This document shows, one piece after another, positions 2,501 through 27,369 of a stretch of 64,000 nt of DNA. The stretch is taken from positions 150,037-214,036 of the forward strand of contig JAXDML010000010.1 in assembly GCA_034666125.1 (NCBI GenBank), given 5' to 3'. Under the pieces are notes generated by a model. It did not search any database and was not told the origin of the DNA. It saw only the letters and a program-made list of their open reading frames with translations. A program made the translations under genes and the position numbers. This DNA is from Candidatus Parcubacteria bacterium. GTDB lineage: Bacteria > Patescibacteriota > Minisyncoccia > Phycocordibacterales > Phycocordibacteraceae. Position 1 is the stretch's first letter. Every line of letters begins with the position of its first letter.

Positions 2501-3289
2501 ATGCAGTATAGCTTCCGTAAGCGGTTTCCTAAGCATGGGAAAGCGGCAGTTGTTCCGCATGACCAAAGATGGGATAGTAAGAGGCATGAAATCTCGGGGG
2601 GGGGGGGGGTACCACATGGTAAGAGCTCGCTCGCTGACTACCAGCGGTTCGTAGATGCCCTGTACGGTCGCAATAACCAGAGGCATTTCACGACCGATGA
2701 GATGCTCATCAATATCAACCGCTTTACCGGACGGGGACTGAAGGGCATCCGCAAGGGGGATGCCGGGAAGACCGTCAAGAACCTGACCATCGCGCTGAAC
2801 TGGACCTGTTCCCTGGCGAACCAACTCGATATCGATCTGGAGAAACAGGTATGGGAGCGCTTCCCGTATCTCTGCCTCTATTGCGGAAGCTGCCCGTGCG
2901 CGTGCAGGCTCCGGAAGGCGAAGAAACGGATGACGAAAAAGACGTTCGCGCACTCGCAGCCCCGTACCCTCCGGGGCCTCCAGGACATGTTCGGCGACAT
3001 CTACCCGCCCGCATCGCGCACGCTCGAGCACGCGGGCATCCACCTCGCCGAGGAAGTAGGCGAGCTCTCGGAAGCCGTCATGGGCTTTCGCGGTCGGCAT
3101 ACCCAGAAGGATTTCGAGAACATCAAGGTCGAAGCGGCGGATGTCTTCTCCTGCTTCATGGGCATCTTCAATTCCCTGAAGTTCGACTATCACGAGTACC
3201 TTATCAGCGCGCATGCGAACGGATGCTATTCCTGCAGGCATCTGCCGTGCACCTGCGAATATCGTTTCGTGATGAGCTTCAAGTCCTAA
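2501..3289 (+). CDS. MazG-like nucleoside triphosphate pyrophosphohydrolase; start uncertain (poly-G lies inside the ORF as called, first in-frame ATG after it is at 2702)
   Basis: C-terminal half carries MazG-type motifs (LAEEVGELSEAV..; EAADVFSCFMGIFNSL). A Cys cluster (CLYCGSCPCAC) is inserted mid-protein. The N-terminal part of the ORF spans the G14 tract. Confidence 0.5.
   Translation: MQYSFRKRFPKHGKAAVVPHDQRWDSKRHEISGGGGVPHGKSSLADYQRFVDALYGRNNQRHFTTDEMLININRFTGRGLKGIRKGDAGKTVKNLTIALNWTCSLANQLDIDLEKQVWERFPYLCLYCGSCPCACRLRKAKKRMTKKTFAHSQPRTLRGLQDMFGDIYPPASRTLEHAGIHLAEEVGELSEAVMGFRGRHTQKDFENIKVEAADVFSCFMGIFNSLKFDYHEYLISAHANGCYSCRHLPCTCEYRFVMSFKS
2596..2609. repeat. Homopolymeric G tract (14 nt) in a divergent promoter region
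   Basis: Direct read: c-GGGGGGGGGGGGGG-tacc, between the minus-strand FAD oxidase start (2498) and the plus-strand MazG-like gene. Confidence 0.9.
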
Positions 3290-3351
3290 TTTTTACAAAT
3301 GAATCCGGAGCGCCTATAATCGGAAAAGACGCGTTCACCGCCATTCATGGC

Positions 3352-4050
3352 ATGGGGAGATTTGACATGATCGTTGCTCAGGAAGCGATTGGAAGGGCAG
3401 TGATGCCCATGCCCGGCCGTTCTCGGCCAAAGCGGAAAAGATATTCAAGCGGCACGAAAAGCACTATCCTCGTATTCGATCAAGCGATCGGCGCGCCGGT
3501 CCGCAGAAACGTGCTCGACGTCCTCGACGAGATGCTTCTCCTGTATCGGAAAGAGGAGAGCTCGTACCTGGAGATCGCCGCCAGATTCCGCCTGCGGCGT
3601 GCGTTCGTGACGTCCCTATTCGCTCTTCGAAGACTGGTACCCGCAGTGCGCAAAATGCTTGCGGCGTCCACGCGCTACGTCGACCGCCTGAGCCTGATCG
3701 AGGCCAGGTATATCTCCGGATTGCGTCCGAAGCTGCAGGCTAAGGTGGCGGCACGGGTCCTGTCCGGGGAACTGTCCTTGAAGGACCTCGGCGACCTTCT
3801 TCGGGATCCTAAGAACAAGGCGCCCCATAAGAAGATCTCGCAAGGGAGACGGTCCCGAAAGGTGCCGTACGACCTGATGCGTAGGGCGCACAGGAAGATC
3901 GCCGCACTCGAACGCGAGGCCGATGCGCTCGCGGAAGTCATGGGCGCTATCAGCCAGCTCAAGCCGGCCAATTCTCATGATGCGCAACAGCTCCTCGAAG
4001 GGATACGGCTTCGCGTGCGCATGAAATTCGAAAGCCTGGGCGCGGAGTAG
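3352..4050 (+). CDS. Hypothetical helical protein (possible HTH/ParB-like C-terminus, unproven)
   Basis: The ORF 2851..4050 overlaps the MazG gene in another frame at its 5' end. The first non-overlapping in-frame ATG is 3352 (MGRFDMIVAQ..). No confident family match by eye. Confidence 0.35.
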   Translation: MGRFDMIVAQEAIGRAVMPMPGRSRPKRKRYSSGTKSTILVFDQAIGAPVRRNVLDVLDEMLLLYRKEESSYLEIAARFRLRRAFVTSLFALRRLVPAVRKMLAASTRYVDRLSLIEARYISGLRPKLQAKVAARVLSGELSLKDLGDLLRDPKNKAPHKKISQGRRSRKVPYDLMRRAHRKIAALEREADALAEVMGAISQLKPANSHDAQQLLEGIRLRVRMKFESLGAE

Positions 4051-4136
4051 GGCCTGAACCTGAAGAGAATGGCCGGCGCGCAGGGCGCGCCGGCTGTTTC
4101 TTATCTATCCAACGCTACTCCTAAAAGTTTTTGTTG

Positions 4137-4142
4137 TATACT
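4137..4142 (+). promoter_or_regulatory. -10-like TATACT 8 nt upstream of the ABC ATPase ATG (leaderless-type start)
   Basis: TATACT at 4137-4142, ATG at 4151, no Shine-Dalgarno purine run. Confidence 0.35.
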
Positions 4143-4150
4143 GCTCTTTC

Positions 4151-5086
4151 ATGAATTCGACTGCGCCGGCCATCCTCATCAAGGACGTGAGGAAGACGTA
4201 CGACCTCGAGAAGGGCGGGAAGACCGAAGCCCTGAAGGGCGTTTCGCTTTCTATTCCGCGAGGCGAGTTCTTCTCGTTGCTCGGCCCGAACGGGGCGGGA
4301 AAGACGACGCTCATCAGCATCGCGACCGGACTCGCCAACAAGACGAGCGGTACGGTCGAGATCGAGGGAGTATCGATCGACGAAGATCCGTCGAAAGCCA
4401 AGACATTCATCGGTCTCGTCCCGCAGGAGATGAACTTCGACATCTTCGAGAAGGTCATCAATATCATCATCTATCAGGCCGGCTATTACGGCATCACGAA
4501 GCGCGAGGCCATGCCATATGCCGAGGAACTCCTGAAGCAGCTCGGGCTCTGGGAGAAGCGCAACGACAAAGCGGAAACGCTCTCGGGCGGCATGAAGCGC
4601 CGCCTCTTGATCGCCCGCGCGCTCATACACAAACCGGCGATATTGCTGCTCGACGAGCCGACGGCCGGAGTCGATGTAGAGCTACGCCGTGGCATGTGGG
4701 ATTTCCTGCGGGAATTGAACGCCTCGGGAACGACCATCGTGCTCACGACACACTACCTCGAGGAAGCAGAGCAGCTTTCCAGAAAGGTCGCCATCATCAA
4801 CAAGGGCGAGATCATCGAGGAGGGCAGCGTAAAGGAGCTTCTCTCGAAACTGAATTACGTGACCCTGCTTGTCGACACGGTCGAGACAGTCACCGTGGAA
4901 TCGGTGCGCGCGCTCGGCGAGTCCGCAAAGCGCATTGACGAGCATACGATCGAGCTGACGCTCCCGCCGGGCGGCCTGGTGAACGACGCCTTCAAGAGGC
5001 TGTCCGACGCGGATATCAGGGTCGCGAACGTGCGAAACCCGGGCAGTCGGCTCGAGGAGGTATTCCTGCACCTCATCAATAACTAG
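4151..5086 (+). CDS. ABC transporter ATP-binding protein (ABC-2 type exporter)
   Basis: Walker A GPNGAGKTT, signature LSGGMKRR, Walker B LLLDEPTAGVD, H-loop TTHYLEEA. Confidence 0.88.
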   Translation: MNSTAPAILIKDVRKTYDLEKGGKTEALKGVSLSIPRGEFFSLLGPNGAGKTTLISIATGLANKTSGTVEIEGVSIDEDPSKAKTFIGLVPQEMNFDIFEKVINIIIYQAGYYGITKREAMPYAEELLKQLGLWEKRNDKAETLSGGMKRRLLIARALIHKPAILLLDEPTAGVDVELRRGMWDFLRELNASGTTIVLTTHYLEEAEQLSRKVAIINKGEIIEEGSVKELLSKLNYVTLLVDTVETVTVESVRALGESAKRIDEHTIELTLPPGGLVNDAFKRLSDADIRVANVRNPGSRLEEVFLHLINN

Positions 5087-5087
5087 T

Positions 5088-5858
5088 ATGAAATCTCCCG
5101 CACTCATCGGCTACGCCACCATGGTCCGCAAGGACGTCGGACGCATGATCCGGATCTGGGCGCAGACCCTGCTGCCCCCGGTGGTCACGTCCTCACTGTA
5201 CTTCACCATTTTCGGTGCCTTCATCGGGAATCAGGTCCAGCCCATCGACGGCTTCACTTATATGCAATTCATCGTGCCGGGACTCATCATGATGAACATG
5301 CTTACCAGCGCGTATTCGAATACCGTATTCAGCTTCTACTTCGCCAAGTGGACGCATACCATCGACGAGCTCCTCGTGTCGCCCATGCCGAACTGGGTCG
5401 TCATCGCAGGGTTCCTCTCGGGCGGCATCGTACGCGGATTCCTCACCGGTATCCTCGTCACTCTCGTCTCGCTCTTGTTCACGGACCTCGCGCTCACGAA
5501 TATCATAGTGCTTTTTGCGGCAGGGTTCCTGACCGCGCTCGCGTTCTCCATCGGCGGCATCATCAACGCCATCTACGCGAAATCCTTCGACGGCATGACG
5601 ATCGTGCCGACCTTCGTGCTCACGCCGCTCACGTACCTCGGCGGGGTCTTCTACTCGATCGACCTGCTTCCGCCGTTCTTCCGCACGCTCTCGCTCTTCA
5701 ACCCCATCCTCTATATGGTGAACGCCTTCCGCTACGGCTTCCTCGGTATCTCGGACGTGCCGCTCGCGACCTGCTTCGCCGTCATCATCGGCTTCACGCT
5801 CGCCATGTTCCTCTGGGCGATGTACCTCTTCAAGAAGGGCGCGGGGCTGAAACGCTAG
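5088..5858 (+). CDS. ABC-2 family transporter permease
   Basis: 256 aa, six predicted TM helices. Start overlaps the ATPase stop (operon). Confidence 0.8.
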   Translation: MKSPALIGYATMVRKDVGRMIRIWAQTLLPPVVTSSLYFTIFGAFIGNQVQPIDGFTYMQFIVPGLIMMNMLTSAYSNTVFSFYFAKWTHTIDELLVSPMPNWVVIAGFLSGGIVRGFLTGILVTLVSLLFTDLALTNIIVLFAAGFLTALAFSIGGIINAIYAKSFDGMTIVPTFVLTPLTYLGGVFYSIDLLPPFFRTLSLFNPILYMVNAFRYGFLGISDVPLATCFAVIIGFTLAMFLWAMYLFKKGAGLKR

Positions 5859-5884
5859 TTTTTGCCGAGTTAGGTTTAGCGCCG

Positions 5885-5890
5885 TATACT
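5885..5890 (+). promoter_or_regulatory. -10-like TATACT 9 nt upstream of the proS ATG
   Basis: gccgTATACTagggaaaccATG. Confidence 0.35.
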
Positions 5891-5899
5891 AGGGAAACC

Positions 5900-7147
5900 A
5901 TGCGGCAGAGCCATCTATTCACGAAGACGAGGCGCGAGGCGCCTTCGGACGAGGTGGCCAAGAACGCCCAGCTCCTCATCCGGGCCGGCTATATCCATAA
6001 GGAGATGGCGGGTGTCTACGGGTACCTGCCTCTCGGCCTGCGGGTAGTGGAGAAGATCAAGCAGATCGTGCGCGAGGAGATGGACGCCATCGGCGGCCAG
6101 GAGATGATCATGACATCCCTCCAGCGCAAGGAGCTCTGGGAAGTAACGGGCCGATGGGACGACAAGAACGTGGACGTCTGGTTCAAGTCGAAGCTCGCAA
6201 GCGGCGGGGAGGTCGGCTTCGGCTGGTCGCACGAGGAGCCCATCACCGACATGATGAAGCACTTCATCGGAAGCTACCGCGATCTGCCCGCGTACACGTA
6301 CCAATTCCAGACGAAGCTCCGCAACGAGCTGCGCGCGAAGTCGGGCATCATGCGCGGCCGCGAATTCGTCATGAAGGACCTGTATTCGTATACGAAGGAT
6401 GAGGCCGCGCACGAGGTTTTCTATAACTCTGCGATCGAGGCGTACAAGCGCGTCTTCGAGCGCGTGGGTCTTGGCGACCGCACGTACCTTACCTACGCCT
6501 CCGGAGGCGCGTTCACGGAGTTCTCGCACGAGTTCCAGACCGTATCCGATGTCGGCGAAGACGTCATTTATATACATAAAAGCAAGGGCATTGCCGTGAA
6601 CAAGGAGGTGCTCACCCCGGAAGTCCTCGAGAAGCTCGATATCGAGGAGAACGAGCTTGAGGAGGCGAAGTCCATCGAGGTCGGCAATATCTTCAACTTC
6701 GGCGATACGAAATCGAAGCAGCTCGGTCTTCTGTATCGCGATGACAACGGCGAAGAAAAGCCGGTCATTCTCGGTTCGTACGGTCTCGGCATCACGCGCC
6801 TTATGGGCACACTCGTTGAGGTCTTCGCCGACGACAAGGGCATCGTATGGCCTGAAGCGGTAGCGCCGTTCCGGGTGCACCTGGTCGCGCTCGTCCCTGA
6901 CGGGGTCACGGTGGCGTATGCGGACTCGGTATACGAGGACCTCGTGCGCGCGGGCGTGGACGTGCTCTATGACGACCGCGACGCCCGTGCCGGACAGAAG
7001 CTCACGGATTCGGACCTGCTCGGCATCCCGACGCGGCTCCTCATCGGCAAGGAGACGATCGAGACCGGGAAGATAGAGGCGGTCGATCGCAGGAGCGGGG
7101 AAGGGAAGCGCATCCCGCGCGGCGAGATCGTGGGCGCATTTGCATAG
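5900..7147 (+). CDS. proS: Prolyl-tRNA synthetase (short bacterial form without INS editing domain)
   Basis: The in-frame ATG at 5900 begins MRQSHLFTKTRREAP..; class II motifs and the anticodon-binding C-terminus are recognisable. The 5' part of ORF 5348..7147 is a read-through artifact overlapping the permease. Confidence 0.9.
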   Translation: MRQSHLFTKTRREAPSDEVAKNAQLLIRAGYIHKEMAGVYGYLPLGLRVVEKIKQIVREEMDAIGGQEMIMTSLQRKELWEVTGRWDDKNVDVWFKSKLASGGEVGFGWSHEEPITDMMKHFIGSYRDLPAYTYQFQTKLRNELRAKSGIMRGREFVMKDLYSYTKDEAAHEVFYNSAIEAYKRVFERVGLGDRTYLTYASGGAFTEFSHEFQTVSDVGEDVIYIHKSKGIAVNKEVLTPEVLEKLDIEENELEEAKSIEVGNIFNFGDTKSKQLGLLYRDDNGEEKPVILGSYGLGITRLMGTLVEVFADDKGIVWPEAVAPFRVHLVALVPDGVTVAYADSVYEDLVRAGVDVLYDDRDARAGQKLTDSDLLGIPTRLLIGKETIETGKIEAVDRRSGEGKRIPRGEIVGAFA

Positions 7148-7149
7148 AT

Positions 7150-8208
7150 ATGGCGCGCGGACTCTCCAAAAGCTCGTTCTTCTCCAGCGACATCGGAGTC
7201 GATCTCGGGACCGGGAACACCCTCGTGTACGTGCGTGGGCGCGGCATCGTGCTCAACGAGCCGTCGGTGGTGACCGTGAACGAGAAGACGGGACAGGTGG
7301 TCGCGGTGGGCCAGGACGCGAAGAACATGCTCGGGAAGACGCCGCCGCACGTACGCGTAGTGCGTCCGCTCGCGCACGGCGTCATCTCGGACTTCGAGGT
7401 GACGCAGGAGCTTCTCGCGTACCTGATTCAGAAGGCGCAGTCGGGAAGCACGAAGCTCTTCGGACCGCGGGTGGTGGTGGGCGTGCCCACGGGCGTGACG
7501 AATGTGGAGAGCCGCGCGGTGCGCGACGCCGCCCTTACGGCGGGCGCCCGCGAGGTCTTCGTGCTCGAGGAGCCGATGGCGGGAGCCATCGGCGCGAAGC
7601 TCCCGGTGACGGAAGCGGTCGGCACCATGGTGCTCGACATAGGCGCGGGTACGACCGACATCGCCGTCATCGCGCTCGGCGGCACGGTGGCCAGCAAGAG
7701 CTCGCAGGTAGCGGGCGACCGGTTCAACGAGAACATTACCGATTTCGTGAGAAGCGAGTTCCAGCTCGCCATCGGCGAGAAGACCGCCGAGGAGACGAAG
7801 ATCGCCATCGGCGCGGTGCTGCCGCTCGATGAGGAACTCGTCCATCCGATCCGCGGACGCGACCTCGCGACGGGATTGCCGCGCGAAGTGATGCTCACGG
7901 ACAGCCACGTGCGCGAGGCGCTCGCGTCCTCGCTCGACAGTCTCATGGAGGCGATGAAGGATGTCATCGAGCATACGCCTCCAGAGCTGCTGTCCGACGT
8001 GCTCGAGCGGGGAGTGACGGTCTTCGGCGGCGGGGCTCTCCTGCGCGGGCTGCCGGAGCTCCTCTCGAAGATGCTCGGCGTGCCGGTATACGTGGCTCCG
8101 GACCCGCTCACTGCCGTCGTGCGGGGTACGGGCATCGTGACCGAGGATCCGGGTCCGTGGGGCGATACTTTCATGCATGAAGAGGCGATCCTACCTCACC
8201 ACGCGTAG
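7150..8208 (+). CDS. mreB: Rod shape-determining protein MreB
   Basis: DIGVDLGTGNTLVY.. actin-fold phosphate-1 motif; full-length similarity pattern of MreB. Confidence 0.92.
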   Translation: MARGLSKSSFFSSDIGVDLGTGNTLVYVRGRGIVLNEPSVVTVNEKTGQVVAVGQDAKNMLGKTPPHVRVVRPLAHGVISDFEVTQELLAYLIQKAQSGSTKLFGPRVVVGVPTGVTNVESRAVRDAALTAGAREVFVLEEPMAGAIGAKLPVTEAVGTMVLDIGAGTTDIAVIALGGTVASKSSQVAGDRFNENITDFVRSEFQLAIGEKTAEETKIAIGAVLPLDEELVHPIRGRDLATGLPREVMLTDSHVREALASSLDSLMEAMKDVIEHTPPELLSDVLERGVTVFGGGALLRGLPELLSKMLGVPVYVAPDPLTAVVRGTGIVTEDPGPWGDTFMHEEAILPHHA

Positions 8209-8974
8209 GTTCGGCGGCGGGGGAGGCGGCCTGTTCTCGTCCATCGGCAGGCTTGTCGGCGCCCTCGTCGCGCTTTTGATACTCGTGCTCCTGGTCCTGC
8301 GGCTCGCCGCCCCCGGATTGCTTACGTCCCTCGCTTCGCCTTTCCTTCGCACGGGACAGGCTTTGACTGAGGGGGTAGGGAGTTCGATGACGCTTGATTC
8401 ACGCAGTTCTCTTATAAAGGATCGAGAGCGGCTCATACGCGAGAACGAGGCGCTCAACGTACAGAACGCGACATTTGCCGCACGCGTTGCGGACCTCCAG
8501 CGTCTGCTCGGGAACCGCACCGAACGCGCGGGCGGTGTGCTCGCGGGAGTCCTCGCGCGACCGCCGGTGTCGCCGTACGACGTGCTCGTCGTCGACCAGG
8601 GGTCGGACGCAGGCGTCAGGATCGGCGCGACCGCGTACGGCTCGGGCGGAGTGCCGCTCGGAACCGTAACGAGCGCGGATGCGCGCTCCGCTCGCGTCAC
8701 CCTCTACTCCCATACCGGCAATGTCACGGAAGGCTGGGCGGGCGCGTCGCGTATCCCGGTGAAGCTTACCGGCACCGGCGCGGGAGGATTCGATGCGGAG
8801 ATACCGGGGACGGCAGGCGCGCTGGTCGGCGACGAGATATTCGTGCCGGGACCGGGCGCGCTCCCGATCGCCGTCATCACGGAGGTCGTGACGGACCCGT
8901 CGTCGCCGTCGGTCGTACTGCGTATCCGCTCGCAGGTGAACCCTTTTTCCCTGACGTGGGTGACGATTCAGTAG
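8177..8974 (+). CDS. mreC: Rod shape-determining protein MreC
   Basis: Directly downstream of mreB. N-terminal TM, coiled-coil (ENEALNVQNATFAARVADLQRLL), and a beta-rich C-terminal domain. Confidence 0.75.
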   Translation: MKRRSYLTTRRFGGGGGGLFSSIGRLVGALVALLILVLLVLRLAAPGLLTSLASPFLRTGQALTEGVGSSMTLDSRSSLIKDRERLIRENEALNVQNATFAARVADLQRLLGNRTERAGGVLAGVLARPPVSPYDVLVVDQGSDAGVRIGATAYGSGGVPLGTVTSADARSARVTLYSHTGNVTEGWAGASRIPVKLTGTGAGGFDAEIPGTAGALVGDEIFVPGPGALPIAVITEVVTDPSSPSVVLRIRSQVNPFSLTWVTIQ

Positions 8975-8975
8975 C

Positions 8976-9236
8976 ATGACGAATCCTCCCAAGTGGCTCA
9001 AGATATTCTTCGCCATATTCCCGTTCGTATCCTTATTCTTCTTCCCGTGGCCGATGACGCTCGTCGCAAGCTTCGCTGCCGGCCTCGTCTTTCCTCCGCT
9101 CGCGCTCGTCGTCGGCATTCTAGTGGATGTGCTCTATAGCCCGGGGACGGGATGGTTCATCGGGGCTACTTCGGGGGTCATACTGTGCGCGCTTTCATAT
9201 GGGGTGCGTCATATAGTGAAAACCCGTATCATGTAG
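8976..9236 (+). CDS. mreD: Small membrane protein, MreD-like by position
   Basis: 86 aa with two or three TM helices, located between mreC and mrdA. Confidence 0.45.
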   Translation: MTNPPKWLKIFFAIFPFVSLFFFPWPMTLVASFAAGLVFPPLALVVGILVDVLYSPGTGWFIGATSGVILCALSYGVRHIVKTRIM

Positions 9237-9240
9237 GGAA

Positions 9241-10929
9241 ATGCTGTTCCGCAGGCGCCGTAAGAAATACAAGAACCACGAGCTCGCCCCCGACGAGATA
9301 TTCCTCGATTCGAGCAACCTTCCGGAATTCAACCAGGGCAGCCTTGAGGGGCGGCTCGAGAAGCCGATATCGCGCGGGAGCTACCTCGGCATCGCCGGCG
9401 TCATGGGGCTCATCCTGTTCGCGCTCGTCGCGCAGGCGGCAAACCTCGGAATCATGCAGGGAACGAAATACGCCCTGCAGAGCGAGCGGAACCGCCTGCG
9501 CCCGGAGGTCATCTTCGCGAAGCGCGGCGCGATCATGGACCGGAACGGCACGCATCTCGTGTCGAACAACGAGGAGCCGCAGGAAGGCGGAGGAATGCAG
9601 ATCCGTCGCACGTATGAGGCGCCCGGCTTCGCGCACCTCCTGGGTTACGTCTCGTACCCGAAGAAGGACTCTTCCGGGAATTATTACGACACCGACATAA
9701 CCGGGCTCGCCGGCGTTGAAGCCGCCTTCAACGATAGGCTCGCCGGAGAGAACGGCACGCTCCTCATCGAGGAGAACGCGAAGGGCGATCTGCAGTCCCA
9801 GGGGAGCGTGACGCCGGTCAAGAACGGCGATGCGGTCACGCTGTCGATAGACGCGCGCGCACAACGCGCGTTCTATGACGCTATCAAGGAACGCGCGGAC
9901 GCATCCGGCTTCCAGGGAGGCGCTGCGGTGCTCATGGACGTGGAGACCGGGGAAGTGCATGCGCTTGTGTCGTATCCCGAATACGATCCGAACATCCTCT
10001 CGAAGGGCACGCCTGCGGATGTCATCGAGGGATACGCGAACGACCACCGTCAGGTGTACCTCGACCGTGCCATATCCGGCCTGTATACTCCCGGCTCCAT
10101 CGTGAAGCCCGCTGAGGCGGCGGGTGCCATCTCGGACGGGGTTATTTTCCCGGAGAAGAGCATCTACTCCGCGGGTTCCATTTCCATACCGAACCCGTAT
10201 GACGCGTCGAAGCCCTCCATATTCAAGGACTGGAAGGCGCATGGGTGGGTGGACGCCCGCCGCGCCATCGCCGTCTCCTCCGACATCTATTTCTATGCGG
10301 TGGGCGGCGGGTACCAGGACCAGCGCGGGCTCGGCATCGAGCGGCTCGGCTACTGGTTCCGCGCGTTCGGGCTTACGAGCAAGACCGGCATCGAGCTTGG
10401 GAACGAGGCGGCGGGCATCATGCCGAGCCCCGCGTGGAAGGAGGAGAACTTCGGGGACCCGTGGCGGCTCGGTGACACGTACAACACGTCGATCGGCCAG
10501 TACGGCATGCAGATCACGATGATGGAGATCGCGCGCGCGTACGCCGCCATAGCCAACGGCGGCAGGCTCGTCCGTCCGACCCTGCGTTTCGGGCAGTCCA
10601 CTGCAAGCGAGAAGATCGAGATAAGCCCGTACGCGCTCCAGGTCGCGCGCGAAGGCATGCGCGACGGCGTGATCGGAGGGGGTACCTCGCAGGGGCTCGG
10701 AGACCTGTCATTCGCACGGCTCGCCGGAAAGACCGGCACCGCACAGCTGGGCGTCAACAACGAGTTCTATAACATGTGGGCCGTCGGCTTCTGGCCGTAC
10801 GAGCACCCGAAGTACGTGTACGTCGTGCTTATGGATCGGGGGCCGGCAGGCACCACCGTGGGCTCCATAGCGGCGACGCATAAGGCGCTTTCGGGACTCC
10901 ACGAGGCCGCGCCGGAGTATTTTGAATAA
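9241..10929 (+). CDS. mrdA: Penicillin-binding protein 2 (elongasome transpeptidase)
   Basis: N-terminal TM, SxxK (GSIVKP), SxN (SSD), KTG (KTGTA). Lies in the mreBCD-mrdA order. Confidence 0.85.
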   Translation: MLFRRRRKKYKNHELAPDEIFLDSSNLPEFNQGSLEGRLEKPISRGSYLGIAGVMGLILFALVAQAANLGIMQGTKYALQSERNRLRPEVIFAKRGAIMDRNGTHLVSNNEEPQEGGGMQIRRTYEAPGFAHLLGYVSYPKKDSSGNYYDTDITGLAGVEAAFNDRLAGENGTLLIEENAKGDLQSQGSVTPVKNGDAVTLSIDARAQRAFYDAIKERADASGFQGGAAVLMDVETGEVHALVSYPEYDPNILSKGTPADVIEGYANDHRQVYLDRAISGLYTPGSIVKPAEAAGAISDGVIFPEKSIYSAGSISIPNPYDASKPSIFKDWKAHGWVDARRAIAVSSDIYFYAVGGGYQDQRGLGIERLGYWFRAFGLTSKTGIELGNEAAGIMPSPAWKEENFGDPWRLGDTYNTSIGQYGMQITMMEIARAYAAIANGGRLVRPTLRFGQSTASEKIEISPYALQVAREGMRDGVIGGGTSQGLGDLSFARLAGKTGTAQLGVNNEFYNMWAVGFWPYEHPKYVYVVLMDRGPAGTTVGSIAATHKALSGLHEAAPEYFE

Positions 10930-11083
10930 TGATAAAAGACCCCAATTTCTAGACCGCACGGACTTGACTATTCCGCCTTAGATGCTATGCTATATGCGGT
11001 TCCTGCTTCGACAGGCCGTTCCTATCCGGTAGCTTGTTAGATCAAGCGCCGGGTCCCCAATCTAGAATGGAAGGAAAAGGGCA

Positions 11084-11845: not shown

Positions 11846-11970
11846 TCCTTCGCGCGCAAGCGCGGACTGGGGCCGGCGGAAACGCTGGCCCCCTCTTTTA
11901 TATACAGCCAAAGCCTGATTTGACGTCCCGATTTTTCCACGTAGAATAGGGTGAACTTCATAGGAACTAC

Positions 11971-12441: not shown

Positions 12442-12463
12442 CTATAATAAGGACTGGGATGAC

Positions 12464-12492
12464 AAAACGCTGCAGGAATTCTGCAGCGTTTT
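12464..12492 (+). terminator. Rho-independent terminator after greA
   Basis: AAAACGCTGCAG-gaatt-CTGCAGCGTTTT perfect hairpin followed by a T-run. Confidence 0.7.
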
Positions 12493-17176: not shown

Positions 17177-17179
17177 CGT

Positions 17180-18907: not shown

Positions 18908-18909
18908 TC

Positions 18910-20217: not shown

Positions 20218-20259
20218 CGCCCCTCCCTATTTTTTGTTATAAAACCTGGGTCGCCAGAC

Positions 20260-20334
20260 GGCCTCATCGTCTAACGGTTAGGACAGATCCCTCTCACGGA
20301 TCAAATCGGGGTTCGATTCCCCGTGAGGTCACCA
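20260..20334 (+). tRNA. tRNA-Glu (anticodon CTC)
   Basis: Manual cloverleaf: acceptor GGCCTCA/TGAGGTC with one G-U; D-arm GTCT/GGAC; anticodon stem GATCC/GGATC with loop CTCTCAC (U33, CTC, A37); T-arm CGGGG-TTCGATT-CCCCG; encoded CCA. Confidence 0.8.
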
Positions 20335-20400
20335 CAGCAGCTTTATCGGTTCTTGGAAGATGCTCCAACCTATAGGGAACTTGCCAATCTGGACCTTCCT

Positions 20401-21525
20401 ATGCATCATAATCGTATGACCCTCAAATCACGGGCGGAGGTGCTTGTTGCGCGTGCCGGTATCGAGATTGATGGCCCGAATCCCTGGGATCCTCAGGTCC
20501 ATGATGAGCGCTTGTACGGCCGCGTCATCAAGGAGGGGACGCTCGGGCTCGGAGAAGCGTACATGGACGGGTGGTGGGACGTCCCGAAGCTCGACCAATT
20601 CTTCGAACGGGTGCTCGGTGCGGACCTCGATGAGGACCTGACGCCTTTCCAGCAATGGCTCCGTAGCACCTGGCATAAGCTCTACAACTTCCAGTCGCAG
20701 GCGCGTGCCTTTCAGGTGGGGGAGCAGCACTACGATCTCGGGAACGATCTGTACGAAGGCATGCTCGACAAGCGCCTGGTGTACACCTGCGGGTACTGGA
20801 AGGACTCGAAGACGCTCGACGAGGCTCAGGAGGCGAAACTCGACCTCGTGTGCCGGAAGCTGAACTTCAAGCCAGGGGACCGGGTGCTCGACATCGGCTG
20901 CGGATGGGGGAGCTTCACGAAGTACGCGGCTGAGAAATACGGAGTGGAAGCCGTAGGCATCACGGTCTCGAAGGAGCAGGCGGCGCTCGCACGCGAGCTC
21001 TGTGCGGGGCTCCCGGTCGAGATACGGGTGCAGGACTACCGCGACGTCCGCGAACGTTTCGACCACATCGTGTCCCTCGGCATGTTCGAGCACGTGGGCC
21101 GCAAGAATTACCGCGAATACATGGAGGTCGCGCGCCGCTGCCTTAAGGAGGACGGATTGTTCCTGCTGCACACCATAGGCGGAAACCGCTCGTCATCGCC
21201 CCCGGACGCGTGGATGGACAAGTACATCTTTCCGAATGGAGTGGTGCCCTCGCTTAAGGAAATAGCCAGGGCGATCGAAGGCGTATTCATCATGGAAGAC
21301 TGGCACAACTTCGGTTCCAACTATGACAGGACCCTTATGGCATGGCACGCGAACTTCGAACGCTCGTGGCCGGGACTGCGCGACAAGTACGGCGACCGTT
21401 TCAAGCGCATGTGGGATTACTATCTCCTCCAGTGCGCCGGCGTCTTCCGGGCGCGCAAAAACCAGCTCTGGCAGATCGTGCTGTCGCCGAACGGCGTTCC
21501 GGGCGGGTATACGCCCGTACGATAG
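20401..21525 (+). CDS. cfa: Cyclopropane-fatty-acyl-phospholipid synthase
   Basis: SAM-MTase motif VLDIGCGWG and the CFA synthase C-terminus. The ORF as called (20323) overlaps the tRNA; start taken at the in-frame ATG 20401. Confidence 0.85.
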   Translation: MHHNRMTLKSRAEVLVARAGIEIDGPNPWDPQVHDERLYGRVIKEGTLGLGEAYMDGWWDVPKLDQFFERVLGADLDEDLTPFQQWLRSTWHKLYNFQSQARAFQVGEQHYDLGNDLYEGMLDKRLVYTCGYWKDSKTLDEAQEAKLDLVCRKLNFKPGDRVLDIGCGWGSFTKYAAEKYGVEAVGITVSKEQAALARELCAGLPVEIRVQDYRDVRERFDHIVSLGMFEHVGRKNYREYMEVARRCLKEDGLFLLHTIGGNRSSSPPDAWMDKYIFPNGVVPSLKEIARAIEGVFIMEDWHNFGSNYDRTLMAWHANFERSWPGLRDKYGDRFKRMWDYYLLQCAGVFRARKNQLWQIVLSPNGVPGGYTPVR

Positions 21526-21527
21526 CC

Positions 21528-21890
21528 ATGTACGACGATAAGCGCGGTATGGATATGGCGGTACCCGAGCAGATACCCGAAGCCGGCTTCTACTACCACT
21601 ACAAGCACGATCCGGAAGGACCGGAAGAGAACTATGCGTACGAGCTTCTTGCCGTAGGACACCATACCGAAGAAGATTCTCGTCCGGAGGACAAGTTCCT
21701 CGCGGTCTATCGTCCCCTGTACGAGTCGGCACTCGTGTACCGGCTCGGACGCATGTACGACGTGCGTCCCCTCGGCATGTTCATGGAACCGGTCACCCGG
21801 GACGGGAAGGAGCAGCCGCGCTTTTCGCGCGTCACCGATCCGGAACTCATCGGGCGGTTGGAGGAGCGACGCGATCGTATGTATCCCTAG
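21528..21890 (+). CDS. DUF1653 family protein
   Basis: YYHYKHDPEG...YAYELLAVGHHTE...LAVYRPLY pattern typical of DUF1653. The ATG at 21528 immediately follows the cfa stop. Confidence 0.55.
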   Translation: MYDDKRGMDMAVPEQIPEAGFYYHYKHDPEGPEENYAYELLAVGHHTEEDSRPEDKFLAVYRPLYESALVYRLGRMYDVRPLGMFMEPVTRDGKEQPRFSRVTDPELIGRLEERRDRMYP

Positions 21891-22699
21891 AACGACCTCG
21901 TCCAGAGACGGAACGGACCCAATTTCGCGTACGTGCCGATCTTCGTACGCTTGATGGAAAGCGCGAACCCATGCGTGCCGAGCTCCTTCGCGATGCGGGC
22001 GGCGAGCGTGCGCATATACGTGCCCGATCCGCAGGCGACGCGGAGCTTGAGGACGGTGAACTCGCGTTCCGGCATATGCTCGAACAGCACGCGCCAGCCA
22101 GCCCGGATGACATCCTGGCGGAAGTCGGCGCCGAGGGCCTTGCTTGCCTCGTCGCTGCGCGGCACATCCCTGAGCGCGACCGTGATGCGTTCCAGGAGGT
22201 CCGCGGGAGAGTACGTTCTTGTCTTAAGAAGCCTTATGCGATACACGGTCTCGTCGTGCTCGGGCATCCGGATCGTATCGAGCGTCCCTTCGAGCGCGTA
22301 CATAAAAAGCGACTTTCCGCCGACGGTCTTCGAGGAGAAGGCGGGATAGGGAACGCGATGCGTGCCCAGGACGGTGGTGAACGCTTCCCGGACACGCGCC
22401 CGCTCCGGATGCGTCTCCGTGGTGTCGTATGAAGGGATGCCGAGTGCGTCGCCCGTATCGGTCGCAAGGTCGAGGACGATCTCTATCGCGTACTCCTTAT
22501 CCAGTCCCGTATACGATTCCTGTTTCTTGCACTCGTCGCCGAGGAGCACGAGCAGTTTCCCGCTCGCCATGGGATCGAGGCGCCCGGCATATGACGCGAG
22601 CAGGGAAGCGTATGCGGGATTCTCAAGCCGCCATTTCTCCACCGCCTGAAGCGGCGTCTCACCCGGTTCCTTATGGATGACGGCGTAACGGGGTGCCAC
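21887..22699 (-). CDS. truB: tRNA pseudouridine synthase, TruB family
   Basis: HKEPGET...GRLDPMASGKLLVLLG (catalytic Asp in LDP) plus a PUA-like C-terminus. Confidence 0.7.
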   Translation of the reverse strand: MAPRYAVIHKEPGETPLQAVEKWRLENPAYASLLASYAGRLDPMASGKLLVLLGDECKKQESYTGLDKEYAIEIVLDLATDTGDALGIPSYDTTETHPERARVREAFTTVLGTHRVPYPAFSSKTVGGKSLFMYALEGTLDTIRMPEHDETVYRIRLLKTRTYSPADLLERITVALRDVPRSDEASKALGADFRQDVIRAGWRVLFEHMPEREFTVLKLRVACGSGTYMRTLAARIAKELGTHGFALSIKRTKIGTYAKLGPFRLWTRSF

Positions 22700-23154
22700 T
22701 AGGAAAGCAGGGAATCCACCACCTCTTTCACCGCGCCGCCGTCCGCCTTGCCCTTGAGCTCCTGCATGACCGCACCCGTGAGCTTTCCGGCTCCGGACTT
22801 GTCCGTAACTCCGAGAGCGGCGATCTTTGCCTTCACCACCGCCTCTATCTCCTCACGCGGCATCTGGGCAGGAAGAAGCTCCTCGATGATGGAGAGCTCG
22901 ATCTTCTCTGTTTCAGCAAGTTCCGGACGGCCGCCGTTCTCGTACTGCTGAATGGAGTCCTTCCGCTGGTTAGAAGCCCGCTTAATGACGGCAAGCGCTT
23001 CTTCGTCGGTGAGGAACTCGTCGGGCTTGCGCTTCTTCGCGACGACCTCGTTGGTCATCATGGTGACGAGGGAGCGGTACGTGGTGAGGCGGACGGTATC
23101 CTTGGCGCGCATAGCGTCCGGGATGCCGGCCTTGATGGTTTCGTGAATGGTCAT
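22699..23154 (-). CDS. GatB/YqeY domain protein
   Basis: 151 aa with YqeY-type repeat pattern (MRAKDTVRLTTYRSL..; ..KAKIAALGVTDKSGAGKLTGAVMQELKGKADG). Confidence 0.75.
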   Translation of the reverse strand: MTIHETIKAGIPDAMRAKDTVRLTTYRSLVTMMTNEVVAKKRKPDEFLTDEEALAVIKRASNQRKDSIQQYENGGRPELAETEKIELSIIEELLPAQMPREEIEAVVKAKIAALGVTDKSGAGKLTGAVMQELKGKADGGAVKEVVDSLLS

Positions 23155-23188
23155 GATGGAGCGATTTTAGCACGGGAAATAGTCGCGT

Positions 23189-23194
23189 TATAAT
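23189..23194 (+). promoter_or_regulatory. -10 TATAAT 7 nt upstream of the rmuC ATG (leaderless-type)
   Basis: gcgtTATAATaagcgatATG. Confidence 0.4.
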
Positions 23195-23201
23195 AAGCGA
23201 T

Positions 23202-24263
23202 ATGGACCCGCTCGTCATAGCCATCATCGTGCTGACGCTTATCTTTTTCCAGACGCTCGGCCTCTGGTTCATCCTCAAGCGACAGGGGAAGTTACGAGAA
23301 GCGCCTCAGGACAGCGACAGCGGCCTTATGCTCCTCCAGAAGCAGATTCAGAACATGGAGTCGGCGCTCGACTCCCGTATGAACGAGTCCTCTCGCAATG
23401 TGAACGAGACCATGCGCTCGCAGCTCGGCGAGTCGGCGAAGCTTATCCGCGAGATCACGGCCGAGATCACGAGCGTGAAGGAGATAGGGCGCGAGACCGG
23501 AAAGTTCGCTGAGCAGTTGAAGTCCCTCCAGGACATCCTGAAGAACCCGAAGCAGCGCGGCATCCTGGGCGAGTACTACCTCGAGACCGTCCTCAAGAAC
23601 GTGCTCCCGCCCGGCATGTACCAGATGCAGTACCCGTTCCCGAACGGGGAGATCGTTGACGCCGCGGTTTTCGTGAACGATAAGATCGTGCCGATCGACT
23701 CGAAGTTTTCATTAGATAACTACAACCGCCTCGTGCACGCCGAAGGTCCGGAGCGCGCGGTCCTCGAGAAAGCCTTCGTGAACGACCTGAAGCTCCGCAT
23801 CACCGAGACCGCGAAATACATCCGACCGGAGGAAGGCACGATGGACTTCGCCTTCATGTTCATTCCTTCCGAAGGCATCTACTACGACCTCCTCACCAAC
23901 CAGGTGGGCGCAGGGGAGGACGAGAACCTCATCCAGCGCGCGGCCGGGAAGCACAAGGTCATCATCGTCTCGCCGACCTCCTTCCTCGCCTACCTTCAAA
24001 CGGTCATGCAGGGGCTGAAAGCGCTGCAGATCGAGAAGCAGGCCGAGGAGATACAGAAACGCGTGGGGGAACTCGGGAAGCACCTGACCAGCTACGAGGA
24101 CTACTATAAGAAGCTCGGGAATGCGCTCGGTACCGCGGTCTCCCACTACAACAGCGGATACAAGGAGCTCGGAAAGGTGGAGAAGGACGTATATCGCATC
24201 GCGAAGGAGAAGATGGAGCTCGATGTGGAGTTGCTCGAGAAGCCGGGAATGCGGGAAGAATAA
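23202..24263 (+). CDS. rmuC: DNA recombination protein RmuC
   Basis: N-terminal TM, long coiled-coil, and the RmuC nuclease-like C-terminus (..MDFAFMFIPSEGIYYDLL..). Confidence 0.85.
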   Translation: MDPLVIAIIVLTLIFFQTLGLWFILKRQGKLREAPQDSDSGLMLLQKQIQNMESALDSRMNESSRNVNETMRSQLGESAKLIREITAEITSVKEIGRETGKFAEQLKSLQDILKNPKQRGILGEYYLETVLKNVLPPGMYQMQYPFPNGEIVDAAVFVNDKIVPIDSKFSLDNYNRLVHAEGPERAVLEKAFVNDLKLRITETAKYIRPEEGTMDFAFMFIPSEGIYYDLLTNQVGAGEDENLIQRAAGKHKVIIVSPTSFLAYLQTVMQGLKALQIEKQAEEIQKRVGELGKHLTSYEDYYKKLGNALGTAVSHYNSGYKELGKVEKDVYRIAKEKMELDVELLEKPGMREE

Positions 24264-24296
24264 AAAAACGCCGCCCCCTTTCGGAAGCGGCGCGAC
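24262..24296. terminator. Bidirectional terminator between rmuC (+) and the OMP gene (-)
   Basis: AAAAAAACGCCGC-cccctttcggaa-GCGGCG hairpin flanked by A and T runs. Confidence 0.55.
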
Positions 24297-24313
24297 ACCG
24301 GATTGGCGTCAGG

Positions 24314-25198
24314 CTAGAAGCGGACTTGGAACCTGGCCAGGATCTCGCCGCGGGAGGTCACGTCCCCGATCAGCTGGAACCGGTCGTGGTTGAACCGAAC
24401 GCCGACCGTCGCGAGGAACGGATCCTCGGCGCCGTGCTGATAGTCGAGCTGCACGTGCGGCTCGACCCCGTTCCCCACCCGGTAGCTGTAGAACGCAAAC
24501 CCGCCGGTGACGGGCCGATCGCCGAAGGTCTTGTAGACGGCCGCGTTCAGCAGGTGGCGTTCGGTCGGCCGCCAGGTGACGTCGCCAGCGAAGCGCTGAA
24601 AGTCGCCCGACACCTGGTAGGTGCCGCCGACCTGCAGCCTCTCGTTCACGTCGTAGGTGAGCCGGCCGGAGCTTTCGATCCCATTGAAGCTTTTGCTTTC
24701 GTTGAAGCGGGAGCGGCTGTTGGCGGTGACGTCCGCGACCAGGTTCACGCCGTCGCCGACGCGCGCCTGGATCTGCACCCCCCACGCGAAAGCGGAGAAG
24801 GGTGTCCGCATGTAATCGGCGGTTCGGAGCAGGAACGGGGGCGGCGTGACCATCGGCGCGGCCAGGAACAGGCGGCCGGCCCGGACGGTCACGTTCTCGG
24901 AAGGCGTGTAGGTCACGTAGGCCTGCCGGAGCCAATTCTGGTCGCCGTCCAGGCCGCGGGTCACGTCGAACTCGACAAAGGCGTCAAACGGCGTTTCGGT
25001 CTCGACGGTGACCCGGAGGCGCGCCATGCTGAGCAGCTCGTCCTCGCGGTCGGTGCCGATGGTGGTCCACGTCCAGCCGTGAGGCCTGATGTCGATGCTG
25101 CCGACCTCGATCGTCGGGATGACGGGATCCGGATTCTGGGCGTTCGCGGTCGAAGCGAGTCCGAACGCGAACAAGGGCGCAAGTAACAAGGTCCTCAT
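24314..25198 (-). CDS. Outer-membrane beta-barrel protein (porin-like) with signal peptide
   Basis: Start taken at MRTLLLAPLFAFGLASTANAQ (cleavable signal peptide). Alternating amphipathic beta-strand pattern and a C-terminal ...FQVRF aromatic terminus typical of OMPs. The upstream GTG-extended ORF and the antisense ORF 24326..25186 are rejected. Confidence 0.5.
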   Translation of the reverse strand: MRTLLLAPLFAFGLASTANAQNPDPVIPTIEVGSIDIRPHGWTWTTIGTDREDELLSMARLRVTVETETPFDAFVEFDVTRGLDGDQNWLRQAYVTYTPSENVTVRAGRLFLAAPMVTPPPFLLRTADYMRTPFSAFAWGVQIQARVGDGVNLVADVTANSRSRFNESKSFNGIESSGRLTYDVNERLQVGGTYQVSGDFQRFAGDVTWRPTERHLLNAAVYKTFGDRPVTGGFAFYSYRVGNGVEPHVQLDYQHGAEDPFLATVGVRFNHDRFQLIGDVTSRGEILARFQVRF

Positions 25199-25347
25199 GG
25201 GTTCTCTCCCCCAAGGGTGGACGTCTGAAGACGTGAAGAGCGGATGCCCTCTAAAATGAATTATATACACAATTTTTACGTCTTGTCAAGGATGCATCGT
25301 GGCCAGGCATTGCTTTTATGCAAAGAAACCCGTAAGATAGCCCCTAT

Positions 25348-25680
25348 ATGGAATTCGCGGTCATCAAGACGGGCGGGAAGCAGTACGTCGTCGCCCCGGG
25401 CGATGTCGTCACCATCGAGAAGCTCGGCAGCCGCTCGAAAACCGAACCCCTCAAGAAAGGGGACTCCGTGACCTTCTCCGAGGTGCTTCTCGTCGATAAC
25501 GGCAAGGATACGACCATCGGCGTTCCCACCATCTCCGGTGCCGCAGTCATGGGGACCGTACAGGTCGTCGGCCGCGCCCCTAAGGTCGAGGTCGTGAAGT
25601 ACAAGGCCAAGAGCCGGTACCTGAAGCGACGCGGCCACCGCCAGCCGTACATCAAAGTGAAGATCGACAAGATCAAGTAG
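25348..25680 (+). CDS. rplU: 50S ribosomal protein L21
   Basis: MEFAVIKTGGKQYVVAPGDVV.. matches the conserved L21 N-terminus. Confidence 0.9.
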   Translation: MEFAVIKTGGKQYVVAPGDVVTIEKLGSRSKTEPLKKGDSVTFSEVLLVDNGKDTTIGVPTISGAAVMGTVQVVGRAPKVEVVKYKAKSRYLKRRGHRQPYIKVKIDKIK

Positions 25681-25706
25681 AAACCGTCCCGAAAGGACGG
25701 TTTCTT
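25681..25706 (+). terminator. Rho-independent terminator after rplU
   Basis: AAACCGTCC-cgaaa-GGACGGTTTCTTG. Confidence 0.7.
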
Positions 25707-25726
25707 GCTGTGCTACCCTATATCCC

Positions 25727-26695
25727 ATGCCAAATCCTGAATTTCTCCAACCGAATCCCACAGGAAAGCCCCCGGTTCCGCCAGTCCTTGCTTCAGTCGA
25801 CGATTTCCTCGACAGTCAGGAGATATACACGCGCTTGAAGCGTCTTCCTCCGGAACTTCGTGCCCGGCACCTGGAGCGGATAACGATTATGGAAGAAGCA
25901 GAAGATGCGGACGACATTGCCATCGTCGCCTACCTCGACGGCATCCTCGAAAAGCGCAAGGAGGCCATGCAGGAGTCAGTAGTGAGCGACCCTTCCATAC
26001 AGGAATACTTCGGACGGCACGCCGAGGAGATCTGGAAGGAGATCGAGACGGATGTCTTTAACGATGCCGACTCGCTCCTTGGCCGCGGACAGACCGCTCG
26101 CGTCATGCGCTACGAGCTTGACAACCCGAGCGAAGACTTCTCAGCCAAGTTCGCGGTCAAGTACCTCGTCACGCCCTCCGAGAAGACCCTCTCGGCAAGC
26201 GGTGAGCATGACCTCCTTATGGAAGTCGAGCGGATAGAGCAGATCGAGCGGGCCGAGGCAATGCGCGCCGACGAGGTAAAGCATTTCCGCGTCCCACATC
26301 CTTACTTCCACCACCAGCGGGGCGAGCTCCAGTGCTATGGAATGGAACTTGTCGATGGACTCGACCTTCAGCAATATGTCGACGGAAAGGGCGATGAAAA
26401 AACGCGCTCTGATATCAGAGCAGCGCTTCACGGCATTAACCGTGAAGCGCTTTTCCGCGAAGTTGATATTTTTTTCAGTGTCATGCATACCATCTGCCTC
26501 CATGGCGACATGCTGAAATTGGGTAACCTGATGGTCAATCGCGAAGGGCGTTTCTATGTCATCGACTTCGGCCAATCCGTACTTGCGAACGATATCGACG
26601 AGAAGTCGCAGGAAAGCTTCGGGAACCTCAAAGAGGATGAGATCCGGAATACCAAACTCCTCCTTACGCAGTTCCTGAACGCCCTCGAAGCCTAA
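25727..26695 (+). CDS. Eukaryotic-like protein kinase-fold protein
   Basis: Gly-loop/VAIK-like (GRGQTARV..FAVKYL), catalytic loop HGDMLKLGNLMV, and a DFG motif (VIDFGQS). Local GC is lower than flanks. Confidence 0.6.
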   Translation: MPNPEFLQPNPTGKPPVPPVLASVDDFLDSQEIYTRLKRLPPELRARHLERITIMEEAEDADDIAIVAYLDGILEKRKEAMQESVVSDPSIQEYFGRHAEEIWKEIETDVFNDADSLLGRGQTARVMRYELDNPSEDFSAKFAVKYLVTPSEKTLSASGEHDLLMEVERIEQIERAEAMRADEVKHFRVPHPYFHHQRGELQCYGMELVDGLDLQQYVDGKGDEKTRSDIRAALHGINREALFREVDIFFSVMHTICLHGDMLKLGNLMVNREGRFYVIDFGQSVLANDIDEKSQESFGNLKEDEIRNTKLLLTQFLNALEA

Positions 26696-27291
26696 GTCTC
26701 CTTGCGATTCTGTAAGGCCGCCGAGAGGGTGGTGGAGTCGGCGTACTCGAGCTCGGAACCGGTGGCGAGGCCGCGGCCGAGCGCGTAGAAGCGTAGATGG
26801 CCGCGCAGCGGCTGCAGGAGCCCCCGGATGTGGTCGGCGGTGTGTTCGCCCTCGCTCGTCGCGGACAGCGCGAGCACGATCTCCGTGAGAACGCCCTGAG
26901 CGCCTTTTTCCACCCGGTTCACTAATTCTTTTTCACGTATCGCGCCTTTGCCGGAAAGGGTGAGGGAGCCGCCGAGCACGAAATACCGGCCCTTGTAGCT
27001 TCCGGAGCGCTCGACCGCGAGGAGATCCTGGTCTTTCTCGACGAGCATAAGCTGGGCGTCGTCGCGCGACGGATCGCTGCAGTACGTGCACATGGCGGCC
27101 TTGCCGCTCCAGAAGCGCATGCATTCGGAACACTGCCTGACGTCCTCAGAGAGGCGGGAGATAAGCTCGGAGAGCTTCGAGCGGTCGCTCTGCGTGCGTG
27201 CAAGGAGATAGTACACGAAGCGCTTCGCCTGCCGCGGCCCGATGCCCGGAAAACGCTCGAAGGCGTGCGCAAGATCCTCGACTCTATCCAT
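26692..27291 (-). CDS. recR: Recombination protein RecR
   Basis: Start at MDRVEDLAHAFERFPGIGPRQAKRF (HhH), C4 zinc finger CSEC..CTYC, and a Toprim domain. The long N-terminal extension of ORF 26692..27687 is rejected. Confidence 0.85.
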   Translation of the reverse strand: MDRVEDLAHAFERFPGIGPRQAKRFVYYLLARTQSDRSKLSELISRLSEDVRQCSECMRFWSGKAAMCTYCSDPSRDDAQLMLVEKDQDLLAVERSGSYKGRYFVLGGSLTLSGKGAIREKELVNRVEKGAQGVLTEIVLALSATSEGEHTADHIRGLLQPLRGHLRFYALGRGLATGSELEYADSTTLSAALQNRKET

Positions 27292-27354
27292 ATCATTAAC
27301 AATACTAAGCCGTACAAGGTATGTCCAAGTCCCGTTGTCTGAAGGACTTGACAA

Positions 27355-27369
27355 CGGGGGGGGGGGGGG
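27355..27369. repeat. Homopolymeric G tract (15 nt) in a divergent promoter region, preceded by a 9-bp hairpin
   Basis: Direct read: caac-GGGGGGGGGGGGGGG-tacat. It lies between the recR start (27291, -) and ORF 27421 (+). The hairpin CCCGTTGTC...GACAACGGG sits immediately 5' of it. Confidence 0.9.

Follow-up and report, generated by a model that had tools for sequence, protein, structure and literature searches.

Two 14-nt poly-G tracts as candidate slipped-strand contingency switches in a Paceibacteria metagenome-assembled genome

Phase variation by slippage at simple repeats is known mainly from host-adapted pathogens. In Neisseria meningitidis, poly-G or poly-C tracts reportedly lie between the −35 and −10 elements of the porA and opc promoters, and in Haemophilus influenzae the divergent hifA and hifB promoters are said to contain a TA repeat; in insect endosymbionts, polymerase slippage reportedly rescues genes that are frameshifted at poly(A) tracts. 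Bacteria of the candidate phyla radiation (CPR, Patescibacteria) have tiny genomes, few regulators and a dependence on other cells. Full-text literature searches turned up no paper on phase-variable loci in Patescibacteria, and such loci have apparently not yet been reported in this group. Here we analyse a stretch of 64,000 nucleotides (hereafter the window) from a metagenome-assembled genome (MAG) of a Paceibacteria member, deposited as Candidatus Parcubacteria bacterium, which holds two runs of 14 G: tract A, at the 5′ end of a gene for a MazG-like nucleoside triphosphate (NTP) pyrophosphatase, and tract B, upstream of a small open reading frame (ORF), ORF108. We consider it somewhat probable that the two are slipped-strand contingency switches, one transcriptional (site B) and one translational (site A).

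Among described systems, the poly-G contingency genes of Campylobacter jejuni carry G/C tracts of about 8–13 nt, chiefly within the 5′ portion of ORFs and in a minority of cases between genes. They switch through slipped-strand mispairing, and functional mismatch repair is lacking; each genome has tens of such tracts, mainly in surface-structure genes, and they switch at 1e-4 to 1e-3 per division (PMC8355987). A 5′ poly(A) tract is described for inlA of Listeria monocytogenes, as is a 5′ bias of homopolymers in prokaryotic genes (PMC2831843).

Two G14 tracts in the window

Tract A is a run of 14 G (G14) at positions 2596–2609 and tract B a run of the same length at 27356–27369, both on the forward strand, preceded by C and followed by TAC. 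Direct reading of the window bore out the first of these positions as given in an initial annotation of this DNA; the second tract had been given there as G15 at 27355–27369, but base 27355 is a C, hence the run is G14. The annotation was right that both tracts have the same length and that no comparable homopolymer occurs elsewhere, the two being the sole runs longer than 7 nt in the 64-kb window. Runs of G or C number 263 at 4 nt, 59 at 5 nt and 6 at 6 nt, with none longer until the two 14-mers, for which extrapolation of this decay gives an expectation of about 1e-6. The tracts exist and far exceed chance, and both are well within the range in which G/C mononucleotide runs are prone to slippage (about 8 nt or more). 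RecR relatives place the organism in Patescibacteria (CPR), among those of the Paceibacteria/Kaiserbacteria type. Across 85 related loci (886 kb in total) G/C runs reach 8 nt at most, with none of 9 nt or more, and so the tracts are specific to this lineage. The window has no other simple repeats of note, and an Rfam scan gave no match at either tract site.

The gene context, an FAD-linked oxidase and the MazG-like gene at site A and recR and ORF108 at site B, is as the annotation described it, and the two loci are indeed unrelated. We could discard a longer shared repeat or attachment (att) site, as the aligned flanks are alike only in C-G14-TAC, and also a relationship between the downstream genes, as ORF108 and the MazG-like protein show no similarity. 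The GTAC that follows both tracts had been singled out as shared context; it is present at both sites and carries little weight, since GTAC occurs 266 times in the window against 238 expected. A special signal in this context was likewise dismissed, with GTAC and GGTACC both at their expected frequencies; TAC is a frequent start of −10 hexamers in this genome. ATG triplets also lie 6 and 8 nt past the tracts, with the G run as a would-be Shine–Dalgarno sequence, an arrangement that we judged coincidental (the ATG at site B precedes the predicted transcript start).

Besides the window, whose proteins match the NCBI MAG locus tags QOE22_649 and QOE22_676 ('Candidatus Parcubacteria bacterium'), the same DNA is present in a 41-kb Joint Genome Institute (JGI) contig (sample 3300044738) and in Logan contigs of SRR24887408, and the tracts are found in all three assemblies, in the Logan assembly at contig ends. 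In the JGI assembly tract A is G14 and tract B is G12, and over the 41 kb the differences from the window are confined to the area of tract B (G12 and two G-to-T changes). The Logan assembly (k = 31) is broken on both sides of both tracts: at tract A the left contig stops after G13 and the right one resumes at 2611; at tract B the left contig ends within the tract after 14 G and the next contig opens with the error-ridden ggccccacattcg.

A technical origin of the tracts, from two-colour poly-G read tails or a scaffolding join captured in the assembly, had been raised in the initial annotation. The common length of 14 nt, the common C-Gn-TAC context, the breaks in the short-read assembly, the garbled bases beside tract B and the single sample that may underlie all three assemblies would be in line with it. 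However, a 14-nt run is shorter than any assembly k-mer, which makes an all-G hub in the assembly graph impossible and means that reads must span each tract and both its flanks. Both tracts, moreover, are internal to the 41-kb and 64-kb contigs, and the genes on their two sides also adjoin in relatives (dnaB and recR; the FAD oxidase and the MazG-like gene). The left Logan contigs end in 13–14 G joined to unique flank, in k-mers that were filtered by abundance. Neither tract, then, is a contig-end or k-mer-long run that joins unrelated DNA, and neither is irreproducible between assemblies, although these data may come from one sample. Because the tracts are shorter than the k-mer and contig-internal, and gene order is kept in relatives, we rejected a technical origin, which we regard as barely credible.

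The three assemblies, 100% identical elsewhere, probably sample one population, and they may share one library; the G12 versus G14 difference and the contig breaks therefore suggest, but do not prove, that tract length is unstable within the population. The two G-to-T changes of the JGI contig are at 27387 and 27389, 17 and 19 nt 3′ of tract B (acgaaGtGtcc to acgaaTtTtcc; L001 2902–2906). The JGI differences beside tract B represent either a second haplotype confined to the neighbourhood of the tract or assembly noise. Scans of metagenomes with degenerate right-flank and plain left-flank patterns gave no match; even the known JGI contig was missed, and so the scanned collection does not include the JGI sample.

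Promoter spacer at site B, start codon at site A

ORF108 (27421–27747, forward strand) encodes a small protein of an uncharacterised family and has a Shine–Dalgarno-like GGGGAGA upstream. Its sigma-70-type promoter (27348–27375, forward strand; 10/12 in a promoter scan) is made up of a perfect −35 hexamer, TTGACA (27348–27353), a 16-nt spacer and a −10 hexamer, TACATT (27370–27375). The spacer reads AC followed by G14, that is, the tract supplies 14 of its 16 bases, and the annotation's placement of this tract in a promoter region was thus correct. Empirically, the chance that a randomly placed G14 in the window would be spanned by so good a promoter is 8e-5. In a homologous cassette on another contig (L087) the corresponding promoter is TTGACA-17-TACTAT, with an ordinary spacer and no G run, which indicates that tract B occupies the place of a normal spacer. 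Since it lies between the −35 and −10 elements, the length of the tract sets the spacing of the ORF108 promoter, which is 17 nt with G15, 16 nt with G14 and 14 nt with G12. Of these, the spacing at G15 would be optimal, that at G14 should still work, and the promoter should be off at G12.

ORF108, its ribosome-binding site and a terminator-like hairpin (27792–27819) make up a cassette (27405–27834, forward strand) between dnaB and recR. For most of the closest relatives, the dnaB coding region extends to the recR start on the same strand and its last part fills the 200 nt 5′ of recR; the distance between the two genes in the window is 551 bp. The cassette is the sole DNA shared with L087 (its positions 9914–10337), an unrelated contig in which it sits in a region with resolvase and integrase genes. 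To judge from these gene orders, the cassette is a mobile insertion between dnaB and recR. The only close homolog of ORF108 (77% amino-acid identity) is the one in L087, and the mismatches between the two genes, 17, 11 and 31 at the first, second and third codon positions, mark ORF108 as a real coding gene under purifying selection. The family has 33 remote homologs, among them one fusion with an excisionase-type helix-turn-helix (HTH) domain (HTH_17); ORF108 itself has no match in Pfam, NCBIfam or PHROG. An AlphaFold model from two sequences was poor; one from 34 sequences was confident and has an alpha/beta fold (predicted local distance difference test score, pLDDT, 86), with no significant match in the PDB.

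The 9-bp hairpin that the initial annotation saw beside tract B is real. It is formed by an inverted repeat (27331–27358) with the arms CCCGTTGTC (27331–27339) and GACAACGGG (27350–27358), of which the 3′ arm takes in the first three G of the tract; the repeat overlaps the −35 hexamer of the ORF108 promoter and, folded as DNA, has an energy of −10.8 kcal/mol (z = −2.3). It may be an operator. The ORF108 promoter stands back to back with that of recR (recR, 26692–27291, reverse strand; Pfam RecR_HhH, Toprim_4 and RecR_C), TGGACA-17-TATTGT at 27299–27327 (reverse strand; 9/12), which ends 7 nt from the ATG at 27291 in a leaderless geometry and does not include tract B.

The inverted repeat that abuts tract B, and the position of both tracts between divergent genes with some 20 nt between their −35 boxes, could mean that the tracts are structural or binding elements, either rigid poly(dG)·poly(dC) or G-quadruplexes that insulate the divergent promoters, or a protein site that includes the inverted repeat. 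This is very improbable in our view: site A has no inverted repeat, and tract A lies past its promoter, towards the gene, and outside the interval between the two promoters. In addition, the minimal G3N1G3N1G3N1G3 needs one base more than G14 offers, and there is no further G3 run within 7 nt. The G-quadruplexes proposed in the initial annotation do not fit the canonical motif, for which an all-G sequence needs at least 15 nt and G14 provides at most three G3 runs and one G2; G15 alleles would match it, and two-tetrad forms could still arise.

At site A, the MazG-like coding region (2621–3289, forward strand) has been annotated only from ATG2702 (195 aa), 33 codons short, by both NCBI and JGI. 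Its family matches are weak (PHROG 1247 MazG-like, E=3.9e-5; Pfam MazG, E=1.2e-3). Nearly all of the homologs listed have about 228 aa. The 27 codons upstream of the annotated start (2621–2701) are open and in frame and encode the conserved N-terminus of the family; the motif YQ.F...VYG..N.R.F...EML is retained 5′ of 2702, in frame up to the tract, and all 222 codons 3′ of the tract are intact. In a syntenic relative (L088), 65 nt separate the divergent FAD oxidase gene from the start of the MazG-like gene, which has the arrangement TTGCCG-16-CATAAT-7 nt-ATG, and this ATG aligns to window position 2603, inside tract A. The tract stands in for an approximately equal length of ancestral sequence (26 nt versus 25 nt), and on this alignment it has replaced the ancestral start codon.

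The initial annotation had put tract A, too, in a promoter. We, however, found no promoter spanning it on either strand; what it overlies is the ancestral start codon and the 5′ coding end of the MazG-like gene, and a switch at this site would therefore act on the reading frame and not on promoter spacing. The promoter of the FAD-linked oxidase gene (837–2498, reverse strand; Pfam FAD_binding_4 and FAD-oxidase_C), which adjoins the MazG-like gene in relatives too, is TTAGGA-16-TATACT at 2532–2505, 6 nt from the ATG, and tract A is not involved in it. On the forward strand the sole hexamer pair of at least 7/12 within 2500–2660 is TTGTTC (2550–2555) and GATAGT (2573–2578), separated by a 17-nt spacer and ending 7 nt before ATG2586 (2586–2588). 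It is a weak match to the consensus, with a geometry that agrees with the −10-N6/7-ATG of many first genes in the window and of L088. We infer that TTGTTC-17-GATAGT (2550–2578) is the promoter of the MazG-like gene, again with leaderless geometry, and that translation would begin at ATG2586.

The frame relations at site A depend on tract length in a simple way. With G12, G15 or G18, and with these only, ATG2586 is in frame with the MazG-like region and yields MKSRGGGGVPHGKSSL...; with G11, G14 or G17 the sole in-frame start is the far-upstream ATG2501; and with G13 or G16 the MazG-like frame is closed by a stop codon. At G14, ATG2586 opens an ORF of 22 codons that ends at 2654. We considered ATG2501 as the true start at G14 and found it unlikely, because the stretch 2501–2595 has a third-position GC content (GC3) of 0.48, a non-coding composition, against about 0.8 in genes; this ATG is also only 3 nt from the divergent start codon. 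Provided that the candidate ATG2586 is the start, the assembled G14 would represent the OFF state, in which RNA-polymerase slippage on G14 might allow leaky expression of the MazG-like gene.

The vicinity of site A has some further features. The FAD-linked oxidase is the first gene of an operon (window 120–2498, reverse strand) in which it is followed by an alternative oxidase (AOX), an oxygen-reducing enzyme that is noteworthy in a CPR bacterium; the operon adjoins genes for an RRM-type RNA-binding protein and a DUF1360 protein, an arrangement kept in L088. Downstream, a gene of 275 aa (3223–4050, forward strand) with weak matches to WhiA/ParB-type HTH proteins shares 67 nt with the 3′ end of the MazG-like gene. 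Since L088 lacks this 275-aa gene and has the ABC transporter directly next, it, too, was probably inserted. Many operon-first genes of the window have a −10-like hexamer (TATACT, TATAAT or TACnnT) that ends 6–7 nt before the ATG and no Shine–Dalgarno sequence, for example those at 4151, 23202, 25727 and 35900 and, on the reverse strand, 49369–50004, 55995–57065 and 60410–61768. This pattern points to widespread leaderless mRNAs in the genome of this Paceibacteria member.

Switching or neutral slippage

A mechanism that would account for these features is as follows. Being so long, the two poly(dG) runs would readily gain or lose G by slipped-strand mispairing, and a change of a single G at either tract would alter the expression of the gene 3′ of it. 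At site B the effect would be transcriptional, through the spacing of the ORF108 promoter. At site A it would be translational: the tract would fall in codons 4–8 of a putative leaderless mRNA that begins at ATG2586, and the conserved MazG-like protein would be made in the three in-frame states given above, with G14 either OFF or leaky by slippage. One added G would bring both loci into their best ON configuration. Under this proposal tract lengths would truly vary within the population, and the switching would presumably be adaptive. Such switches are expected to sit in a promoter spacer or early in an ORF; tract B falls within a near-consensus promoter and tract A between the candidate start ATG2586 and the conserved frame. 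The earlier suggestion of slipped-strand phase variation of promoters is therefore in keeping with the layout of site B, where the tract is in the promoter spacer and G12 is seen in an otherwise matching assembly, but not with that of site A, where the tract would act on the reading frame.

Several observations weigh against switching. The promoter at site A is weak (7/12) and ATG2586 is only a candidate start, and gene decay would account just as well for a MazG-like gene that has no good start in its assembled state. At a tract of fixed length, stutter from PCR or sequencing could produce both the G12/G14 difference and the contig breaks; the assemblies probably represent one population and perhaps one library. 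A tract is lacking from the syntenic FAD oxidase/MazG-like locus of the closest relative (70% identity), from the ORF108 homolog in L087 and from 80 recR loci, and thus there is no sign of long-term maintenance; the databases searched contained no strain closer than the 70%-identity relative. Classic contingency genes concern surface structures or restriction-modification, and neither of the genes that would be controlled is of this type; the census of tracts covers 64 kb of the genome.

Some of these observations are shared by the main rival explanation, according to which replication slippage in a small genome with weak repair or weak selection has produced the tracts as neutral or degenerative side effects, tolerated outside essential coding sequence and unconnected with adaptive switching. 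The lesion at site A would have destroyed the MazG-like start, as an early step of pseudogenisation, and site B would be a chance expansion of a spacer. The restriction of the tracts to this lineage among all relatives examined, the MazG-like gene that has no well-placed in-frame start at G14 and the flanking genes, which are not typical of contingency loci, all agree with it. Slippage of this kind would not, however, be expected to place tract B exactly within the spacer of a 10/12 promoter at a functional length, nor to leave the 222 downstream MazG-like codons intact and the family motif in place, and a simple mutational tail would predict intermediate runs of 7–13 nt, of which there are none. 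We regard neutral slippage as possible, though on the whole rather unlikely.

A more far-reaching form of the switch proposal would be that CPR bacteria, or Patescibacteria, possess homopolymer contingency loci in which G14 is built de novo, in place of as much ancestral sequence, once in a promoter spacer and once over a start codon, so as to switch stochastically a nucleotide-housecleaning enzyme and a newly acquired mobile gene; this we hold to be improbable. The G runs might even be written by an active process and not by stepwise slippage, given their identical length and context and the lack of a G-rich precursor in relatives. If tract lengths truly vary, CPR bacteria, too, would generate heritable heterogeneity of expression by repeat slippage. 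In practical terms, poly-G tracts of this kind break up short-read assemblies and mislead gene callers, as the shortened MazG-like annotation illustrates.

Other features of the window, and known systems

Away from the two tracts, the window contains a low-GC island at about 37300–51000 (40–54% GC against about 60%), with orphan ORFs, a staphylococcal-nuclease homolog (49369–50004, reverse strand) and a DUF7718 protein. The JGI contig ends at about window position 37320, exactly at the drop in GC, which means that either the island varies between strains or the MAG is doubtfully joined there. Positions 40121–40222 (reverse strand; 102 nt), on the island's edge, match the Rfam tRNA model at 56.7 bits, with no ARAGORN call, and may represent an intron-containing or otherwise unusual tRNA. 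Within the island, just 5′ of an ORF at 48316–48798, is a full-length Rfam LOOT RNA motif (48137–48252, forward strand; 70.2 bits against a gathering score of 46.4).

Of the described systems, Campylobacter jejuni shares with site A the intragenic 5′ layout of its tracts; in contrast to its tens of tracts, two are known here, in 64 kb. The likeness of site A to inlA is that a homopolymer in the first few codons shifts the frame, reversibly, to give a tiny peptide (8 aa for inlA; 22 aa from ATG2586 at G14). The homopolymers in that case, however, are poly(A) or poly(T) of at most 7 nt, whereas here the tract is G14 and the ancestral start codon has been erased as well.

Both sites resemble hifA/hifB in having a repeat within a short region between divergently transcribed genes. 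There, a single repeat in overlapping spacers is said to control both genes, whereas the FAD oxidase and recR promoters are free of the tracts. With the insect endosymbionts, site A has in common a reduced genome, a long homopolymer and a gene that is out of frame but otherwise intact, and rescue by polymerase slippage could apply to the MazG-like gene at G14, although the endosymbiont tracts are reportedly A/T runs in AT-rich genomes and the tract here is of G.

In Neisseria porA and opc, as at site B, a G/C homopolymer reportedly makes up most of the −35/−10 spacer, so that the number of G would set the spacing and, with it, the level of expression. Length variation and graded expression are said to have been measured there, for outer-membrane proteins, whereas both are here proposed from the sequence, and the gene at site B encodes an orphan, cytoplasmic-looking protein of 108 aa, carried by a mobile cassette in an environmental CPR bacterium.

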